IMG/VR virus record: IMGVR_UViG_3300037424_001778
Coordinates: 1 to 45,585 of that record
DNA: 45,585 bases
Direction: 5' to 3' (one strand)
Origin: a virus
Part shown: positions 4,202-30,374 of the stretch, piece after piece
Layout: the number at the start of each line of letters is the position of its first letter
How positions within the stretch are numbered: position 1 is the first letter of the stretch
Position numbers and translations under genes: made by a program
Notes under the pieces: generated by a model
Database searches by the model: none
Seen by the model: the letters and a program-made list of their open reading frames with translations, nothing else
What the model was told of the DNA's origin: nothing

Positions 4202-4252
4202 TCGGGCTCTTAGTCGGATAATCTAAGATTCGACCAGCACCGAGCGGAGTAC

Positions 4253-8535: not shown

Positions 8536-8856
8536 ATGAGGATACCCACAAACGAAATAGAATTCAAGCGCGCAGTAGGTAAGGTCAAAGGCAAGGTGCT
8601 GTGGCACGTCAAGACACGCGGCGGACTCCACCTCATGGCTTTGGATGGCGGCGAAGTAGTAGGCGCAGCTTCACACCGAGCCGTGGCCAGGCACATAGCC
8701 CAACAGCACGAGCCAGGTCTAGAGTGGACCGAATTGTCCAAGGGGGAGTGGGCGGCTCTTTCGGACTATGAGTTCTGTTTGCCGGAGTACCAAGAGCTAA
8801 CGGATAGAATGAGGACCCTACAAAAGAAGACGCGCTCTGGTGACGCCTGTGACTGA
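8536..8856 (+). CDS. Hypothetical late protein
   Basis: AAGG RBS; contains ELSKGE. Confidence 0.75.
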   Translation: MRIPTNEIEFKRAVGKVKGKVLWHVKTRGGLHLMALDGGEVVGAASHRAVARHIAQQHEPGLEWTELSKGEWAALSDYEFCLPEYQELTDRMRTLQKKTRSGDACD

Positions 8857-9565
8857 CCGCCAAGATGGCGTCATATACGCTCTCACCGACCCACGCTACG
8901 ATAACGTTCGTTATGTGGGTCAGACGATACGGCCAATGAAAACTCGCCTGCGTGAGCATATCAATGCGGCACGCAAGGGCGAGAAAGGCCATAAGGGGAA
9001 CTGGATACGGTCTTTGTTGGAGCTGGGTCTCGCTCCAGGATATAGGATTCTACATTCAGTTGCACGGGAGCGATTGGACGTAATGGAGGAGCTTACGGTC
9101 TCGTACTATAGATTGTATGGCTCGCAGTATCTTTTCGACCTCATCGAGGATTGCCCTTGGCCGGTCCAACCTCCCCTCACCAACGCGGCCGATGGAGGCG
9201 CGCACGGTGTAGGCATAAGCGGGCGTCACCATACACCGGAAGCCAAGGCACTTATCGGAGCGGCCTCAAAAGGAAATAAGTACGCCCAAGGCAAGGGGCG
9301 CGCCAGGTCTAGCCCAAGAACCCCAGAGCACGCTGCCAAGCTGGGTGCGGCGCGGCGAGGCAAGCCCGGTCGTATTTTTGATGTCGAGGCCCGTAGGGCT
9401 CAGTCTAGACTTAGGGGCGGCTCGCCAATAGTAGACCAATTGGGGCATCGCTACGAGACGGTCGCAGAGGCCGCTCTTGCCACCGGCTATAGCGGCGGTG
9501 CGATATCTCGAGTCGTAAGAGGTGAACGAAGGGCTATTGGTGGGCTTGTTTTCTCTAGGGTGTAA
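8840..9565 (+). CDS. GIY-YIG homing endonuclease with NUMOD3/NUMOD1-like tail
   Basis: GVIYALTDPR..RYVGQT..RLREH; HHTPEAKALI; C-terminal HTH. Confidence 0.85.
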   Translation: MTPVTDRQDGVIYALTDPRYDNVRYVGQTIRPMKTRLREHINAARKGEKGHKGNWIRSLLELGLAPGYRILHSVARERLDVMEELTVSYYRLYGSQYLFDLIEDCPWPVQPPLTNAADGGAHGVGISGRHHTPEAKALIGAASKGNKYAQGKGRARSSPRTPEHAAKLGAARRGKPGRIFDVEARRAQSRLRGGSPIVDQLGHRYETVAEAALATGYSGGAISRVVRGERRAIGGLVFSRV

Positions 9566-19712: not shown

Positions 19713-20279
19713 TCAGTAATTCTCCGCTTCGACTCGGGAACAAAAGAAATGGATTCCGGCCCCGTATTCTACCGTTGTGTCTGGATTGTAAGTCCAGCTC
19801 ATGGCCCGCTTGCCTACAGTGTAGGTGAACTTTAGGTCGTACAGAGACCCGAAAGTAGTCTCTTGGGACCCGGCATCGAGGGGAAACGCTTCGAGAACGA
19901 GGCAGTGGTTCGTTCGACACTTGACGCCCCAGCTCCCACTTCGAGTCCCGAGAATTTGGAGCTTCAGAATGGCCCCTCGGACCTTTTTCCAGCCGATGAA
20001 TTCTTCGGTTGTCGGAAAGGGTCGGTCGATTCGGGTGTCGCCGTAGACCCGGGCGTTGCCGTAGACCCGGGTGTCGCCGTAGACCCGGGCGTTGCCGTAG
20101 ACCCGGGCGTCGCCGTAGACCCGGGTGTCGCCGTAGACGAAACACTTGCCTTTGTGGCTCAGGTTGGCTTCGGATTCAATCCATCCTCCAACCAAACCAT
20201 CGGAAAGACGACGGATGCGACGGAGAGTGATGCCATTGAACTTCTTTGTTTCGCCTATGAATTCGTATTTTGGTGTCAT
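19713..20279 (-). CDS. Hexapeptide-repeat protein with DUF5758-like C-terminus
   Basis: GGWIESEANLS, six VYG[DN][AT]R units, GAGIHFF..EAENY. Confidence 0.8.
   Translation of the reverse strand: MTPKYEFIGETKKFNGITLRRIRRLSDGLVGGWIESEANLSHKGKCFVYGDTRVYGDARVYGNARVYGDTRVYGNARVYGDTRIDRPFPTTEEFIGWKKVRGAILKLQILGTRSGSWGVKCRTNHCLVLEAFPLDAGSQETTFGSLYDLKFTYTVGKRAMSWTYNPDTTVEYGAGIHFFCSRVEAENY
20032..20138. repeat. 18-bp coding tandem repeat, about 6 units
   Basis: cgggYgtYgccgtagacc units. Confidence 0.9.
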
Positions 20280-20358
20280 TTGGTTAGCTCCCTTATCGTC
20301 GACACCCTACCTCGGTTGCCTCTTGCGTGTCAAGCGCCATCGGTATAATCTATGTCAC

Positions 20359-21897
20359 ATGCCATCAACATTCGTCTACTTAGCATTCAGTGCGGACCGT
20401 AGTCCCAAAGAAGTGGAATACGCGTCAGCCGCCGATGATTTTGAGCGTATGGCACGCTTTGCGCAAGTGCAAGAAACGGGCAACGAAGGCTGGAAGAGCT
20501 GGGCTTTGGCCAACAATGGCGAAGTCATCATCATGAATGGCGACGAAGGTCGAATTCGCATCCCAGCGGAAAAGTTGACCGAACTTCCCCACCTCCGCTC
20601 ACAATATGCCGAAACGGTTGGGGCGACGGTTTCGGTCGGTGTGGGGGCCAAGATGTCAGAAGCCGATAAAGCCCTCCAGGCAGCCCAGAAGGCTGGAGGC
20701 GACCGTATCCGTCTCTATGACCAGTCCGTAGAGGAAGACCTCGCTGCGGGCCTCCAGAAGACGCAGGCGGCCTTTCATGACCCGCGCACCGGTAAGGTAT
20801 ACCCCACAGGCTCCATCCATGACCTCGAAGGCCTCCCCGAAGAGCTGCAGCAGGATGCAATCGACGGCAAGGTTTTGTCTGGTTTCGTGGGGGATGACGG
20901 CAAGTTCTTCCAGCGCAAGCCAAAACTTCCCCACCTGGCAAAGGCGGAAGGGCGGGCCTATGCCGAAATCGCGGGAGCCGGAACTGTACCCCCCCAGCGC
21001 CCCACAACGGCCCACCCCCTAGCCCCAGAGCCACCCCAAACGGGCGACCCAGAACCATCTGAGGACGAAGCCTCACCGCAGCTAGACATGGACCAGCTCC
21101 ACGACACCATGACGCAAATGGCCTCCCAGCAGGGCCAACAGGACTCCCAAGACGAGCAAGTCCAACAAGCCGCCGAAGCCAAGGGCCAGGCCCACGGAGA
21201 CCTGACCAAGCGTGTAGCGGCTATTCTACAGGTCTTCAAAGCGCGCGCTTCCGAACTCGAGCAACTCCAGCAAGCGGACCCAGAGCTATACCAATCGTTG
21301 GTAGGCATGCTCCAGGCCATGGTCGAGATGGCCCGAAGCGTTCAAGGAGGAGATAGCAATCCCGGAGAAGATTCAGGAGCTGAGGTCAAGAAGTCTGAGT
21401 CTAGCTGTCCCATGTGCGGAGCTGAACCCGGGACCGACATCGATTGCCCCGAATGTCTCGCTTACGACAAGGTCGAGGTCTCACCAGAAGAATCGTTTAC
21501 AGAAGATAGCGAACTCCACAAGGATTCGATGCCTGGTGGCAAAGGAGACGACGCTCCAGACGAAGAGTTTGCCCAGGATGACCTAGAGCATGGCGTCAAG
21601 GAAGAGCGCAAGGAGCACGGTCTCGATGCAGAACGTGCCAAAGAAATCGTTAAGGACCATTTGACTGAGGACGATGAATATTACGCCAAGGCCGCCCTCG
21701 ACCCAGGCAAGACAGGCCGCCACGAAGTAAATTATCCGGTGGGGTCCACAAAAGAGCCCGGCCCGGGTGGGACGAAAGACGCCGGGAAAATCAAAATTCA
21801 AAAGCCGGATGGTAGTACAACGTGGAGAAGTGTGCGCGCGGGATTAATCATGGATACAGAGGGGCGCCCCATTTCGTCCAGGAGGCAGTCATCGTAA
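20359..21897 (+). CDS. Multidomain late protein: mCpol-like N-terminus, small GKFxxR domain, DUF5661-like domain; probable internal head protein
   Basis: ATG 7 nt after TAATCT; GEVIIMNGDE..TVSVGVG..EADKALQAAQKAGGDRI; GVKEERKEH..IVKDHLTEDDEYY. Confidence 0.75.
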   Translation: MPSTFVYLAFSADRSPKEVEYASAADDFERMARFAQVQETGNEGWKSWALANNGEVIIMNGDEGRIRIPAEKLTELPHLRSQYAETVGATVSVGVGAKMSEADKALQAAQKAGGDRIRLYDQSVEEDLAAGLQKTQAAFHDPRTGKVYPTGSIHDLEGLPEELQQDAIDGKVLSGFVGDDGKFFQRKPKLPHLAKAEGRAYAEIAGAGTVPPQRPTTAHPLAPEPPQTGDPEPSEDEASPQLDMDQLHDTMTQMASQQGQQDSQDEQVQQAAEAKGQAHGDLTKRVAAILQVFKARASELEQLQQADPELYQSLVGMLQAMVEMARSVQGGDSNPGEDSGAEVKKSESSCPMCGAEPGTDIDCPECLAYDKVEVSPEESFTEDSELHKDSMPGGKGDDAPDEEFAQDDLEHGVKEERKEHGLDAERAKEIVKDHLTEDDEYYAKAALDPGKTGRHEVNYPVGSTKEPGPGGTKDAGKIKIQKPDGSTTWRSVRAGLIMDTEGRPISSRRQSS

Positions 21898-21950
21898 GAG
21901 GTGGCGACCGGTAAGCCTACTAACTCTAGAACGATGTAATCTGATTGTAT

Positions 21951-22826
21951 ATGATACAATACGAAGCCGATAGGGATTTCTTCCGGTCGATAGATACGCC
22001 CGAAAAGGCATACACCTTAGGTTTTATGGCCACGGATGGACATGTAGCTGAGAACGGGATGGTATTGAGTCTCCAAAAAGGAGATAGGACCGTTCTAGAG
22101 CGAATTCGTGGCTGGATGCACAGTTCGCATAAAATAACCGAGCGCCCAATGTCCAGGAGTACAGGGACGCAGGCAACTCTTAAGGTTTACGGGTCCGAGA
22201 TAGTCCGAGATTTACGCCTATTGGGGTTTTCCAACAATAAGACATTTACGATTTCTCCTTGGACTGGGCCATCCGAACTGTTACCCCATTATTGGCGCGG
22301 ATGTGTAGATGGTGATGGGTGGGTTATAGATCACGGCTCGAACTTCACTGTTGGTTTTTGTGGCAACATACACATGGTAACCGGTTTCCGGGACTACATT
22401 GAAAATACCACTCAACATCGCGCCAATATTCGATCCCACAAATCCATCTTTAGGGTTGAATATTCGGGCGTTAGACCAGCGCAAAGGGCCATCCGCGCGC
22501 TGAAGTATAGCGACTACCCCGAAATTTGTCTTCCGCGCAAACACACACTGGCGTTAAAAGTCCTAGAGGCCAAGTTTCGACCTAATGGGAGCTCTACAAA
22601 AGGGAAAAAATACGATGAGGCACACAATCTAGCCAATTCGCGCAGACAGGGCGGTACCGCTATACGCGACCAAAACGGTATAGTTTACAGTACAGCAGCT
22701 TCAGCGGCGCGAGCACTTGGAATACAACGGTCGCATGTATCTTCTGTTCTTAGCGGGCGGCGCAAGACTGTCGGTGGGTACTCTTTTGTACGAGTGCAAG
22801 ATGGGTCAATGGGACAAGCCCAGTGA
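21951..22826 (+). CDS. LAGLIDADG homing endonuclease with NUMOD1-like tail
   Basis: AYTLGFMATDG and YWRGCVDGDG. Confidence 0.88.
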   Translation: MIQYEADRDFFRSIDTPEKAYTLGFMATDGHVAENGMVLSLQKGDRTVLERIRGWMHSSHKITERPMSRSTGTQATLKVYGSEIVRDLRLLGFSNNKTFTISPWTGPSELLPHYWRGCVDGDGWVIDHGSNFTVGFCGNIHMVTGFRDYIENTTQHRANIRSHKSIFRVEYSGVRPAQRAIRALKYSDYPEICLPRKHTLALKVLEAKFRPNGSSTKGKKYDEAHNLANSRRQGGTAIRDQNGIVYSTAASAARALGIQRSHVSSVLSGRRKTVGGYSFVRVQDGSMGQAQ

Positions 22827-23644
22827 TTTCGCTGAACGTAGACTTGACGGCTATACTGGACCTCCAGAAGGAGCTAGAGCCCAAAGTCCAGAAAGCCTTC
22901 TTGGATGCAGCTCAGGGCTTGGCCCTGCAGGCCCACGCCCATATCCTCGAAGAAGCTCAGTCCAAACTGCATTCGACCCGAGATAAGTACATATCGGCGC
23001 TGGACTTCAAGCAAGTCTCTCAAGACACTTGGATTATTGCGCTGGACGAGTCCGCCATGTGGGTGGAGGAAGGCCAAAGTGAGCATAGTATGCTAGATTC
23101 GTTGCTGTCTAGCCCTAAGGCGAAGACGGCAAAAGATGGTTCGACCTACATCGTCGTGCCATTCCAACACAACAAAGGACCGTCGAGGCAAACTCCAGCC
23201 CAAAACGACCTCACCTCGACGATAAAGCAAGAAATGCGACAGCGAAAAATCCCATACGGCAAACTAGAAGTTGACGAGCACGGCAAGCCCAAAGTGGGGA
23301 AGCTGCATACATTCGACATTTGGGCGCCGATGAAGACAGCTCAAGGCCCAGGACAGGGCCACGGACCCATCGGGGCCCCCAGGCAAGGACCGACAGGCAT
23401 TCCATTCTTGAACCGGGTCAACGTCTACCAGCGCGAAATAAAGAATGCGGCCGGGAAGTCGTCGGTACGCAAAGACATCATGACGTTTCGCGTGGCCTCT
23501 AGCAAGCACTATGCCGAGGGCCGCTGGTACCATCCTGGGACCCCAGCCAGGAATCTTATGGATACTACTGCTGATTGGGCTTTGAAGGTATGGGAGACAA
23601 AGATTGTGCCAGACCTACTTCGCAGGTTGGACTCCACTCTCTGA
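22823..23644 (+). CDS. Probable neck/tail-completion structural protein
   Basis: Position in late series; TFRVASSK..WYHPG. Confidence 0.55.
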   Translation: MISLNVDLTAILDLQKELEPKVQKAFLDAAQGLALQAHAHILEEAQSKLHSTRDKYISALDFKQVSQDTWIIALDESAMWVEEGQSEHSMLDSLLSSPKAKTAKDGSTYIVVPFQHNKGPSRQTPAQNDLTSTIKQEMRQRKIPYGKLEVDEHGKPKVGKLHTFDIWAPMKTAQGPGQGHGPIGAPRQGPTGIPFLNRVNVYQREIKNAAGKSSVRKDIMTFRVASSKHYAEGRWYHPGTPARNLMDTTADWALKVWETKIVPDLLRRLDSTL

Positions 23645-24625
23645 TATTTGTGGAGGTACGCGGCTAAAGAGACCCCCACGCACCGGCTTACTGAACCCCT
23701 TGCTGATGGTATTTTCTTCGACGTCGTAATGCGCCGCCGCCGCCTTTACAGAAGCAAAGACGGTTCCATCTGGGGCGCGGACCGCCCACTTGTCCTTTAG
23801 TGGCAAATTATTTCTTTTGAATGCGTTGCGGACAGCAGCGGAACTACACCGACAAGACACTGCGAGCGTGGGAATGGTGTCGCCATGAATATACTTCACA
23901 TAAGCTATAAGCGCTTGGCTCCTGTCTAGGATGGAGAGGGCCTCGGAATCTGACCGAGCGCGCAGCCCCGCCCTATCTAATATGCCGTATATCAGAGTGC
24001 GAGAGCAGTGATACCTCTCTCCAACTTCGGGAGCCGACATACCAGACAAGTAATCAAACAGAGCCTGAGACTGTTCCGAAAGGGTGAGGCCGCCCTGGGA
24101 TGAGAACCTATCTTGGCGCGCAATGCCGTGTGATTTCAGGATATAGATAATACTTTGGTGGTACACCTGGAACTTTTCGGCAAGTCGGCGCGTATTGAGC
24201 CTGGGATACAGTGAACAAATTTCCCTCTCCTGCTCTTCCGTAATACCCGTTCGGGCTCGGCGAAGGTTTTGCACTACGGCGGCAGATGCGGCTCCACCCC
24301 GTCCGCCATCAGTCTCGTTGACCAATCTGCATCCTTTTTTACGAAAAAAGTCAATCCAATAGATTTCGCATTCGTCCGCTTGACTCTGGGATGTTAATCC
24401 CGTTTGTAGTGACTGTATTCTTGTTGGAATATGAAGGAGAGCGCATCTGCGAAAAAGACGGGCCCGGTGGGTTTGGTCTCTTGGCCCGGGGCGTCGGTGT
24501 TTATTGAGTCTCTTTCGGAGGTCGCCCCATGTTTGGCCGACATAGCGCAGCTCCTCCTCGACGAAGAGAACGTACACAGTACACGACCTTGCTTTTGGAG
24601 CCAAACCCTCCCCTAGCTCAATCAT
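23615..24625 (-). CDS. GIY-YIG homing endonuclease with multiple HTHs
   Basis: VYVLF..RYVGQT..RLNKH..EIYWI..LVNETDGG. Confidence 0.85.
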   Translation of the reverse strand: MIELGEGLAPKARSCTVYVLFVEEELRYVGQTWGDLRKRLNKHRRPGPRDQTHRARLFRRCALLHIPTRIQSLQTGLTSQSQADECEIYWIDFFRKKGCRLVNETDGGRGGAASAAVVQNLRRARTGITEEQEREICSLYPRLNTRRLAEKFQVYHQSIIYILKSHGIARQDRFSSQGGLTLSEQSQALFDYLSGMSAPEVGERYHCSRTLIYGILDRAGLRARSDSEALSILDRSQALIAYVKYIHGDTIPTLAVSCRCSSAAVRNAFKRNNLPLKDKWAVRAPDGTVFASVKAAAAHYDVEENTISKGFSKPVRGGLFSRVPPQISESGVQPAK

Positions 24626-26063: not shown

Positions 26064-27029
26064 CTACGCTGACGCGAGCCAGTCAAGGACTCGTTTGATT
26101 GTGGCGGCGGGGTTGCCACCTAAGTGCTTTTCGTACTCGGAGTCTTTGACTCTGAGGAGTTTAATTCCAGCATCGAGACACTGTTGGTTTTTGCGCAAGT
26201 CGCACTCTACGCGTCTGGACTCCGAGTGCCACTTACCGCCATCATATTCTATCGCCTTACGAAGTGACGGTACGTATATATCCAGTTTGAATCGCTTGTT
26301 GTTCAAAAGGCCGTCGCCGTGACCCGCATCTGGATGGAGACCCCGAACCGCTCCTAGGATAGCCAACTCGGCTTTGGAATGCTGGGCGATGTCGGCGCAT
26401 TTCGGACAGCCCCTTGGGTCTAGGGCTTTAGATCTATTGGCAATCGAGGCCGGCCACTCGTGGCCCTTAGCGCATATCCACCATACCTTTTGGGCGGATC
26501 CATACGATACAGTATCTGGCGTAAGGTGTTTATTCTTTGTGGGATGCCATTCTTGGCATAGCTGCGGTCGCACAGCCGATAGTGCGTTTTGGGGCGACAC
26601 ACGACGCCCGCTACAGTACGGACATCCTTGCGCCTACGACACTCGCATGTTGGGGCTCATCGCCCATTCGTGACCTTCTGCGCATACCCACCAAAATTCG
26701 CTTGTGCATCCCTTAGCTATAGTATCAAAGACCCGCGCGTTTTTGGGATGCCATTCGGGGCGTAGTTCTGGGGAACAGGTCGCTAAAGAGTTGTGCCGGC
26801 GCGCCTGGCGGGGGCCACTGTTTCTTTGGGTAGAACATGTCGGACACCCGCTACCGTTCCTGGTCCTATTGTAGGGAGTTGCGGACCATTCGTGCATCTT
26901 CGAACACACCCACCAGCATTCTCGCTCGGACCCACAAGTGACGCCTTCAAATCGGACGTCTCCGTTCTTGGTCGGATGCCATTCGGCCTCCAGGTGCGGT
27001 GCTTTGAGTTTGAGGGAGTTCTGTTTCAT
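26064..27029 (-). pseudogene. Zn-ribbon-repeat (DUF4379-like) plus Vsr/DUF559-like endonuclease with one in-frame TAG at 26634-26636
   Basis: EWHP.KN..WW.C..GHEW..GCP.C repeats; LDIYVPSLRKAIEYDG.KWH; frame continues RVS*AQGCPYCSG. Confidence 0.85.
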
Positions 27030-28103: not shown

Positions 28104-30374
28104 ATGGCTATTCCTCCGCACCTCCAAAACCATCCAGTTTTTTCTGGCCAGGGCTCATTCGGTATTATGAGCGGGGTGGACGCATACTTCCCAGCGCAGA
28201 CGGAGGCGACCCACGCCAACCTCCTATCGACCGCACAAGGCGCCCTTGCTGCCCTCAGAAGCAGAGCCCAAACCAAGAAGCCAGGTCTCACCAAGGCTGA
28301 ACCAGACATCGTAGCCGACCTAGGCGCCGAACTGGCTGGCCAGGGTGAGCACATCCCGTCTCTGTTGACTCCATTCGGTGCAGCCATGGGGGCCGGCGCA
28401 GCTACCCCATCCGCCTATGACCTTCGGACCAAGCTACCAGAAATACACAAGCTAGTCCAAAGCTACGGCTTCAAGTCCTTCCTGCACGGCGGCAGGTACG
28501 GGTCTCGTGCCCCAGAACACGACTTCCAATCCGGCCTCCTTCCTGTCCATGACCCAGGGGAGACGGACCCCCAGCAATTCAACACGGAAAACGCAAAGCA
28601 GACCCTCATCCAGCTAGCCCGAGCATTGACCAAGCCAGAAATCGACAAACTGTACGGACCGGCGCCGAGTCCGGAATCTGACGTTCATTGGGAAGACCTA
28701 GCTTCCAGGAAGCAGCGCGAGTTGGCTGGGGCTCTCGGTATGCATATTTCCGATGACGCCTTCAACCGTGAGCACAATTGCGCGATGGCGAATGCTGTAC
28801 ACGTAGCAGTCGCCAGCACTCTCCCAAACATGGAGCAAATCGGGTTCGTCCCTCACTCGCATGAAGTTCCTCTATCTATCGCGCTGGACCTAGTACGCGG
28901 TAGTCAGCCTATGGCCAAAGCTGAGCCCAAAGTCAAGATTGCCTGGCGCCACAAAACCACCGGCAGCGTGACCGAAACCGATACAGCCTACCACGACCAC
29001 AAAGAACTACCCGAGCCCAAAGAAAACTACGACGAGGGCTACACGGAAAAGGGCAAGTTCCATACTCGGGAAGAGTACAAAAAGATACACCCCCGCAAGA
29101 TGAGAGTGCACAAGGCAGAAATTCCGGCAGGAACCCACAGTACCGTTGAAGGATTCACGCAAGGACTCAAGGCTCTTCCGAAGGGCTCTCCAGCCAGAGG
29201 CAAGTTCATCACCCAGCACATGAACCATCCCAACTTCATCGCAGCCCTACAAACACACCCGCAAGGCGCGCAAATACACAAAATGCTGACAGCACACCTC
29301 AACAGTCCAGCCAACGCTGGGCCAGGTCGAGGTGTGGTTACCGCAAAATCGGAAAGTGCTGTAATCTTTTCGACATTGCAGGAGAAAAACGTGGCCAATC
29401 CTATCGACCGACAAGCTGCTCTAGACCGTATTAAGAACCTTACGGCACAAATCGAAGACTTGCGCAAAAGGGAAATGGCCAAGGCTCTCATTCCTCCCCA
29501 CAAACACAACGTAGGCACGACCGTCTCGTCCGGCATCGAGGACGTAGCTCCCGCCCACCTCAATCCTCAAGGCAAGAACGACCCTCTCCACGGTGGAACC
29601 GCCGTACGCCCGATGGTCGCCCAAAAGGCCGAGCTTTGCAAGGGCTGTGGCAAGTCTGAATGTGCCTGCATCAAGAAGGACGAACTCGTCGACCCCAAGG
29701 GCAAGCAGTCCTGCAACGGCGTAGTCACCAAGATGCCTGCGACTTCGAAGGAAGTATCTGCCGAAGGTTCAGGCGGGCAAATCAAGAAGGGCAAAACGCT
29801 GTCGGACATTCGCAAGGGCGACCCGCGCCATGCTCCAGGTCCATTCTATCAAGGCAAGCCCTGGCAGGTGAGCGGCGAAGGTAGGAATGCAGAAGAGTCT
29901 TCTGCCAAGCCGGCACCCACCAAGAAGCCACGGGACTTCCCACACAAAGAGACTCCAGTCAAGTCGCCGACCCAGAAGGCAGAGCCGCCTATGGCGAAAC
30001 CCCCGTCTGGCGCAAACATGGGTACCAAGACGCCGGTTTCCAAGCCAGGCAATGCAATGAAGCCTGCTGCTGGCGGCAGCATCCCGAAACCACCTACAGC
30101 CACAAAAATGCCGCCACTCGGCAAGGGCGTGATGTCTGACATCGCCCACCGCGAAAGCCAAGCAATGGGCGCCCCATCGGCAGCTCCAACCCCTAAGGTC
30201 AAGCTCCCAGCCCCACACGAGCAAGAGGACCGTGCCGCAATGTTTGCCGACGCAATGGCCGGAGCCTACAAGCCACCGGCTCCCGTCAAGCCCATCCATC
30301 GGACCACCACAACGGTTTCCGTTCAGCCCCAATCTCGCCCTGGTATTTTTGCCAGACTAAATAATCCCAAGTAA
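28104..30374 (+). CDS. Large K/P-rich multidomain late protein, probable internal head polyprotein
   Basis: About ten hydrophobic-X-K-[ASGD] motifs; internal promoter, RBS and in-frame GTG at 29391. Confidence 0.7.
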   Translation: MAIPPHLQNHPVFSGQGSFGIMSGVDAYFPAQTEATHANLLSTAQGALAALRSRAQTKKPGLTKAEPDIVADLGAELAGQGEHIPSLLTPFGAAMGAGAATPSAYDLRTKLPEIHKLVQSYGFKSFLHGGRYGSRAPEHDFQSGLLPVHDPGETDPQQFNTENAKQTLIQLARALTKPEIDKLYGPAPSPESDVHWEDLASRKQRELAGALGMHISDDAFNREHNCAMANAVHVAVASTLPNMEQIGFVPHSHEVPLSIALDLVRGSQPMAKAEPKVKIAWRHKTTGSVTETDTAYHDHKELPEPKENYDEGYTEKGKFHTREEYKKIHPRKMRVHKAEIPAGTHSTVEGFTQGLKALPKGSPARGKFITQHMNHPNFIAALQTHPQGAQIHKMLTAHLNSPANAGPGRGVVTAKSESAVIFSTLQEKNVANPIDRQAALDRIKNLTAQIEDLRKREMAKALIPPHKHNVGTTVSSGIEDVAPAHLNPQGKNDPLHGGTAVRPMVAQKAELCKGCGKSECACIKKDELVDPKGKQSCNGVVTKMPATSKEVSAEGSGGQIKKGKTLSDIRKGDPRHAPGPFYQGKPWQVSGEGRNAEESSAKPAPTKKPRDFPHKETPVKSPTQKAEPPMAKPPSGANMGTKTPVSKPGNAMKPAAGGSIPKPPTATKMPPLGKGVMSDIAHRESQAMGAPSAAPTPKVKLPAPHEQEDRAAMFADAMAGAYKPPAPVKPIHRTTTTVSVQPQSRPGIFARLNNPK

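Follow-up and report, generated by a model that had tools for sequence, protein, structure and literature searches.

A degraded mCpol palm domain at the start of a late modular protein of an Mx1-like phage

Introduction

Do phages produce immune-type cyclic nucleotides or deliver what is needed to produce them, for example to neutralise guards that sense nucleotide depletion, and which non-catalytic job keeps the fold of such a synthase after its catalysis is lost? Both questions are raised by a single gene in a 45,585-nt stretch of viral DNA (positions 1 to 45,585 of the IMG/VR virus record IMGVR_UViG_3300037424_001778; here, the window). The gene lies on the + strand, from the ATG at 20359 to the stop at 21897, and encodes a 512-residue protein, P0001, that starts with an mCpol domain (mCpol stands for minimal CRISPR polymerase). 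Work on mCpol has hitherto been confined to its role as the synthase of the bacterial Panoptes guard system, and phage-encoded mCpols are not described in the Panoptes papers or in the paper on phage polyvalent proteins. We describe a conserved phage gene family with an mCpol among particle genes, apparently intact in about half of the members and dead in the rest. The degraded copy, the roughly 50:50 split between intact and degraded members, the repeated independent loss, the dead copy of Myxococcus phage Mx1 and the swapping of putative cargo on a common tail are new here.

Results

The N-terminal domain is an mCpol palm domain

The original prediction, drawn from the letters of the DNA, put an mCpol-like (Cas10-palm) domain at the gene start, over 20359-20730, which corresponds to residues 1-124 of the 512-residue frame. 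All peptide strings that it quoted are present in the frame opening at ATG 20359, with the LQKT stretch at residues 132-135. The domain itself is borne out by three approaches. First, Pfam PF18182 (gathering cut-off 26.4 bits) matches residues 8-119 when residues 1-135 are searched alone (29.3 bits, E 1.2e-6). It scores 29.1 bits in a six-frame search of the genome, above the cut-off, and 25.7 bits, just under it, with the whole protein. Second, a profile of 47 N-terminal domains of the family finds the mCpol structure 9nwn (E 5.7e-13) and KpOptS 9mnr (E 1e-12, full length) in the Protein Data Bank (PDB), and GGDEF domains rank far below them. The family profile is required for this, as phmmer with the single domain against the PDB gives E 1.2 at best, also to 9nwn. 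Third, the AF2 model of residues 1-135 (pLDDT 91.6, pTM 0.83) has the order beta-alpha-alpha-beta-beta-alpha-beta-alpha-beta, and its top six Foldseek matches in the PDB are OptS/mCpol chains (9pd0, 9mnr and 9nwn; TM 0.80-0.85 by target, rmsd 1.9-2.3 A over ~116 columns). The best TM, 0.85, is to KpOptS (9pd0/9mnr), and GGDEF domains come after these six.

Since the Pfam score, the profile search and the AF2/Foldseek comparison agree, residues 1-134 are a genuine mCpol palm domain; the assignment is secure and the resemblance far beyond chance. A PHROGs search with P0001 gave no informative family, and BFVD holds one uncharacterised homologue.

The active site is degraded

KpOptS binds its metal through Asp6 and Asp57 (PMC12657218). 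The type II Cst mCpol has D11 and D63 as their equivalents, and its D63N/D64N mutant is inactive (PMC13577387). ATP selectivity in 9nwn comes from S30 and N34 (PMC12657230). We mapped these positions onto P0001 residue by residue through the alignment of the family profile with the PDB structures. Asp6, the metal-binding aspartate of strand beta-1, is Ser11 in P0001. Asp8 corresponds to Asp13, which is kept and is invariant in the 47-sequence alignment. The G-R that follows the first motif is P-K, so that the IGR loop is lost and SPK stands in its place. The hairpin aspartate Asp57 is kept as Asp62. S30 and N34, the selectivity residues, are Ala35 and Glu39; the serine is kept in most intact family members. 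The alignments thus agree with the predicted readings of DGD as SAD and GGD as NGD.

Close relatives sharpen this picture. In P0002, P0003 and P0007, which are 87-94% identical to P0001 in the domain, position 11 is Lys. Against P0002 (92% identical; locus L010) the domain has a dN/dS of 0.14, and 5/8 of the amino-acid differences fall in residues 11-20, hence the fold is constrained and the former catalytic loop free to vary. Because position 11 is Ser or Lys, the latter being unable to bind metal, and because neither the IGR loop nor the Ser for ATP selectivity is left, the domain is probably a pseudo-enzyme, predicted to make no cyclic nucleotide. The original prediction had offered a synthase, a decoy and a pseudo-enzyme side by side; it is the last of these that the sequence favours.

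We weighed the other two options against the same residues. A non-canonical cyclase that is still active, with Ser11, Asp13, Asp62 and Glu63 binding metal adequately, would suit the invariance of Asp13, the retention of Asp62 and Glu63 and the purifying selection on the domain, and OptS itself is without the canonical GGDEF motif (PMC12657218). We nevertheless consider it very improbable: three proteins of 87-94% identity read Ser, Lys and Lys at position 11, both the IGR loop and the selectivity Ser have disappeared, the loop of the former active site is the most variable part of the domain, and many family members have lost both motifs entirely. Hardly probable, too, is a nucleotide-binding decoy or sponge, in which host immune signals would be sequestered by a dead palm that binds ATP or a cyclic (oligo)nucleotide. 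The AF2 model and Foldseek comparison show the palm-domain pocket fold kept, and phages are known to use sponges against cyclic nucleotides (PMC12657218, PMC12657230). However, the lost residues are those that in mCpol hold the triphosphate-metal complex and select adenine, and one late-made copy per polyprotein is ill-suited to early stoichiometric sequestration, unless it is delivered.

Catalytic residues were lost repeatedly in one phage family

The whole-protein search returned 67 homologues, mostly flagged by PF18182, on contigs of up to 170 kb. The family is spread over Mx1-like phages of 150-170 kb, and the genome of P0001 is itself that of an Mx1-like myophage (164,882 bp, judged complete). 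The only cultured relative is the protein WNM70340.1 of Myxococcus phage Mx1, with 29% identity. This member (L001:7995-9401) is annotated as a hypothetical protein, and both of its catalytic motifs are degraded.

Most relatives have the intact motifs DGDHIGR and GGDEGR. When members with a complete N-domain are surveyed for intact motifs, the Asp...Asp/Glu catalytic pair is kept in 72/138 and degraded in 66/138; many members other than P0001 have wholly lost both motifs. When 47 domains are placed on a maximum-likelihood tree, 5 changes are required to explain the loss; well-supported branches force at least 3 of these, and the degraded lineages have long branches. Within the family, the catalytic pair was lost at least 3-5 times.

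The family is a phage-specific mCpol clade, as a word-indexed profile search for relatives of stand-alone size (67-237 aa) gave one match only. No phage genome matched by megablast when 20 kb of the window served as query, and the sole matches by tblastn were Mx1 (29% identity) and, in Virus Rctr197k, a DUF5661-like stretch. A literature search found the genome announcement of Mx1 and no proteomics of its virion. The CBASS/type III-B island of M. xanthus does not restrict Mx1 (PMC11506125), which is compatible with counter-defence roles and uninformative on the P0001 gene.

Variable modules are joined to a conserved C-terminal tail

P0001 consists of the mCpol domain, a small module, a linker, a helical hairpin, a CxxC insert, a DUF5661-like module and a tail (Table 1). 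The small module is relocated in some relatives, and in P0018 it follows the helical module. The DUF5661 family, Pfam PF18905, matches weakly in P0001 and clearly in relatives. The tail has 0 substitutions relative to P0002. A tail search of 1.84 billion cluster representatives found it in 146 proteins, nearly always at the extreme C-terminus, and most of them start with an mCpol-like domain. Tail-bearing proteins without mCpol have instead ART-PolyVal (E 5e-15 and 2e-17; P0075 and P0098), DUF3293 or an EncFtn-like domain (E 6e-9), and GNAT or ParB modules occur in the family members P0031, P0054 and P0062. Judged from these architectures, the middle of the family proteins is a variable cassette, the signature of phage polyvalent proteins. 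One metagenomic protein, P0143 (224 aa), joins an EncFtn-like (encapsulated ferritin) domain to the same tail. In the 3' half of the P0001 gene no + strand ORF in another frame overlaps it, and we therefore do not propose a programmed frameshift that would give the carrier two lengths.

A profile of residues 270-512 found nothing in the PDB, an ESM Atlas feature search with the same residues gave uninformative scores of 0.75-0.76, none of the modules has a paralogue in the phage genome itself by tblastn, and a literature search for DUF5661 found nothing. Another late gene of the window, the ORF at 28104-30374 (+, 756 aa), has many candidate cleavage sites of the kind described below. Its N-terminus resembles that of P0070 (1097 aa), in which the same tail is internal, and an inner stretch resembles the middle of the family member P0019; a likeness of the small module to this ORF proved too weak for BLAST. 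Modules seem to have been shuffled among these late proteins.

Candidate protease sites mark the module borders

The module ends share a short motif, which we write with an arrow at the putative cut (Table 1). Within 48 residues after the mCpol domain, a hydrophobic-x-K-[A/S/T/N] site is present in 138/158 members, with 39 expected from shuffling, and K-[A/V/S/G] stands directly before the tail in 62/69 members. In the alignment of the C-terminal halves the sites coincide behind the helical module and ahead of both DUF5661 and the tail. The strict form of the motif occurs 40 times genome-wide (21 expected) and 3 times in the P0001 ORF (0.37 expected, p 0.007). It clusters in a scaffold-like ORF of 314 aa that lies upstream of the capsid gene (5 vs 0.3 expected), in a 1295-aa protease ORF (5 vs 0.7 expected), and also in the ORFs at 28104-30374 and 160995-162023. 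Such a site also stands at residue 11 of the major capsid protein (phrog_752, E 1.8e-39), and the residues that follow it recur inside the protease ORF. Maturation of the HK97 capsid protein involves a cut after a Lys with similar surroundings. We suggest that the prohead protease would cut P0001 at these K↓ sites.

The gene is late and stands apart from the head operon

The original prediction of a late gene holds: a TAATCT motif precedes P0001, and the gene is syntenic with neck and sheath genes. The 165-kb genome has 43 copies of TAATCT on the + strand and 4 on the - strand. Most of them precede + strand structural genes by 8-60 nt, in many cases with 13-15 nt to the ATG, and (T/C)AATCT is found upstream of the homologous gene in 4/5 relatives. 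No Shine-Dalgarno sequence was found between the motif at 20346-20351 and the ATG at 20359. This distribution suggests that TAATCT is a phage late promoter yielding leaderless or near-leaderless mRNAs. In the window it occurs at 4219, 6238, 14141, 20346, 27052, 28091, 30372, 33868, 37320 and 40058, in addition to others elsewhere in the genome, and it is frequently preceded by A.

The P0001 gene is the first + strand gene after a - strand block with an RNA ligase and a DUF5758/YdcK-repeat protein. Directly behind the homologous gene, relatives have a phrog_16819 protein of 270-290 aa, a protein of 330-342 aa, large proteins and the tail sheath. In the P0001 genome homing endonucleases are interposed between these conserved late genes, and the neighbours are an I-HmuI-like endonuclease, the phrog_16819 protein and the DUF5758 protein. 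The head operon contains the portal, the protease ORF, an intact GGDEF protein, the scaffold-like ORF and the capsid protein. With the TAATCT motif in front of it and the head operon ~100 kb away, the P0001 gene is late-regulated and not head-linked.

It is possible, though somewhat doubtful, that P0001 is never packaged and acts late in the cytoplasm or in assembly (as a neck/tail chaperone, a scaffold or a late in-cell factor), with the mCpol fold as an oligomerisation module. Such a protein would fit a gene that comes first in the neck/sheath operon, usually followed by the 270-290 aa phrog_16819 protein, that lies outside the head operon and whose tail is unique within the genome. It would fit less well with a carrier that is elsewhere fused to ART-PolyVal, GNAT, ParB and EncFtn-like modules, which suits delivered or encapsulated cargo rather than an assembly chaperone, or with a border motif common to the scaffold-like and protease proteins.

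Several nearby and distant genes deserve a record of their own. Divergent from the mCpol gene, 19713-20279 (-) encodes a 188-aa protein with YdcK-type beta-solenoid repeats and DUF5758 that is conserved in L010. Genes of homing-endonuclease type lie at 21945-22826 (+), 23615-24625 (-), 26064-26600 (-) and 8840-9565 (+); the types are I-HmuI/NUMOD-like, GIY-YIG plus HTH, DUF4379 treble-clef and HNH. In the relative L005 the phrog_16819 gene directly follows the mCpol gene. A second palm-domain cyclase is the 386-aa protein of the head operon (G000:C1:133108-134268; L007:13108-14268, +), with an intact GGDEF motif (Pfam GGDEF, E 2.8e-9), between the protease ORF and the scaffold-like ORF. The 1295-aa ORF itself (G000:C1:129152-133039; L007:9152-13039, +) has a weak match to head-maturation proteases at its N-terminus and is PI3/PI4-kinase-like at its C-terminus, and it holds an internal near-copy of the first ~30 residues of the capsid protein (136166-137557), including the K↓A site. 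TAATCT also precedes the genes for a 1607-aa NUDIX/ParB-like/HEAT protein (G000:C1:152960-157783) and a 771-aa PI3/PI4-kinase-like protein (G000:C1:158524-160839; for the two genes L008, L009). In Mx1 the NUDIX and kinase homologues are found just upstream of the mCpol-family gene.

Table 1. Features of the P0001 gene in the window; an arrow in a motif marks the candidate cut.
Feature	Position	Strand	Basis or remark
TAATCT late-promoter-like motif	20346..20351	+	13 nt upstream of ATG
CDS of P0001: mCpol N-terminus, variable modules, conserved C-terminal tail	20359..21897	+	67 homologues; tail in 146 cluster representatives
mCpol (minimal CRISPR polymerase) palm domain, aa 1-134	20359..20760	+	Pfam, profile vs PDB, AF2, Foldseek
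Degraded first catalytic motif, aa 10-17 (Ser11, Asp13, SPK)	20386..20409	+	alignments
Second motif NGDE, aa 60-63 (Asp62 kept; first Gly of GGDE is Asn)	20536..20547	+	alignments
LQK↓T candidate prohead-protease site, K134↓T135, at the mCpol domain end	20752..20763	+	family-wide site conservation
Small conserved module, aa 135-195, ends LAK↓A	20761..20943	+	dN/dS 0.007 vs P0002
Pro-, acidic- and Gln-rich linker, aa 196-275	20944..21183	+	fastest-evolving part, dN/dS 0.19
Conserved helical hairpin module, aa 276-345, ends VKK↓S	21184..21393	+	alignment; AF2 helices pLDDT 80-89
CxxC-9 residues-CxxC zinc-ribbon-like insert, aa 350-366	21406..21456	+	weak Pfam Zn_Ribbon_1; varies among relatives
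DUF5661-like helical module, aa 389-444, between LHK↓D and YAK↓A	21523..21690	+	AF2 helices pLDDT ~88
Conserved C-terminal tail, aa 445-512, LPVGSxK-type and W-x-S-V-R-A-G motifs	21691..21897	+	candidate carrier/packaging element

Discussion

What is P0001 for?

We suggest that P0001 is a late protein of polyvalent type, probably packed into the capsid and cut by the protease, whose mCpol module is dead and kept for a structural or oligomerisation role. We hold this reading as a whole to be rather likely. The packaging and delivery part is inferred from the late motif, the polyvalent architecture, the tail shared with ART-PolyVal and EncFtn-like proteins and the candidate protease sites. The proposed course is as follows. 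P0001 would be made alongside the particle proteins from the TAATCT late promoter and loaded into the prohead via its carrier parts, the helical module and the C-terminal tail. The prohead protease would then cut it at hydrophobic-x-K↓A/S/T/D into about six pieces, which would leave the capsid with the DNA. The dead mCpol module most likely would serve folding or oligomerisation of the carrier; this role is proposed because OptS itself forms dimers and tetramers.

A number of observations weigh against this reading. The gene heads the neck/sheath operon with the head operon ~100 kb away, and in the genome of P0007 it lies between replication and fibre genes. By tblastn the tail is not common to other candidate cargo proteins of the genome. 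The AF2 model of residues 270-512 is weak (pLDDT 66), and the K-sites could merely be conserved helix ends. With Asp13, Asp62 and Glu63 retained, residual or altered chemistry is possible. All family members are known from sequence alone.

In the relatives with DGDHIGR and GGDEGR, about half of the family, the module is probably an active cyclic di-/oligo-adenylate synthase that would be delivered in the same way. A broader scheme, which is speculative and which we think unlikely, would unite both kinds of members. Mx1-like phages would load swappable cargo (mCpol cyclases, ADP-ribosyltransferases, acetyltransferases, ParB-like and ferritin-like modules) into their HK97-fold capsids by an encapsulin-like tail signal. 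The protease would free the cargo at the K↓ sites, and it would be injected with the DNA. Intact mCpols would supply decoy cyclic adenylates that silence Panoptes-type guards, or would otherwise distort host nucleotide immunity, and dead copies, such as those here and in Mx1, would multimerise the carrier.

Comparison with known systems

The P0001 domain belongs to the same palm fold and sequence family as Panoptes OptS/mCpol (PF18182; KpOptS 9mnr and 9pd0; mCpol 9nwn; Cst mCpol), and like them it retains the SxGxG...A(D)xAL...AK..G block near the C-terminal end of the domain as well as the hairpin Asp. However, the bacterial enzymes are stand-alone proteins of 115-130 aa, whereas in P0001 the domain is fused to the N-terminus of a 512-aa late protein, and unlike them it has lost the catalytic Asp of beta-1 together with the IGR loop and the Ser for ATP selectivity. 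A Panoptes system (optS-optE, types I and II) pairs the stand-alone mCpol with a nucleotide-restrained membrane effector, either S-2TM-beta/Cap15-like or CARF-TM. A search for the Cap15/OptE-type family PF18153, which did not extend to CARF-TM effectors, gave no match in the 165-kb genome, and control genomes were likewise unmatched. Since the mCpol is fused, the neighbours include no effector and the genome has no PF18153 match, the P0001 locus is not a Panoptes system.

Degenerate GGDEF domains are palm domains that no longer catalyse and serve for binding or as structural parts. The P0001 domain is like them in being a palm cyclase fold under purifying selection after the loss of a metal-binding residue. 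Unlike them, it is of the mCpol family, viral and without an I-site or known ligand, and here a single orthologous family of phage genes has undergone the loss at least 3-5 times.

The cargo of encapsulins offers a third parallel. The LPVGSxK-type motif of the P0001 tail resembles the M. xanthus encapsulin cargo-loading signal LTVGSLRR (PMC5959871), at 4-5/8 positions only. As in encapsulin cargo, an EncFtn-like domain is found on one tail protein, and the shell would be an HK97-fold capsid. The tail has ~68 residues vs ~8 for the encapsulin loading peptide, and we take the likeness as a lead, not as a claim of membership.

A further parallel, in architecture, is given by the phage polyvalent proteins, which are predicted to enter the capsid and to be delivered along with the DNA; the precedent known from experiment is T4 Alt, a packaged ADP-ribosyltransferase, and the domain list of these proteins includes GGDEF and not mCpol (Iyer et al. 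2017, PMC5512222). P0001 likewise has several unrelated modules arranged as beads on a string in one polypeptide, a late, structural or virion gene setting and predicted packaging into the capsid, and its family shares the tail with ART-PolyVal proteins and has GNAT and ParB, likewise usual in polyvalent proteins, in some members. Unlike polyvalent proteins, the P0001 family is without the MuF, portal or MPTase anchors and has a carrier of its own, formed by the helical module, DUF5661 and the C-terminal tail. The proposed processing differs as well: polyvalent proteins have an internal peptidase, whereas P0001 would be cut by the prohead protease at its K↓ sites.

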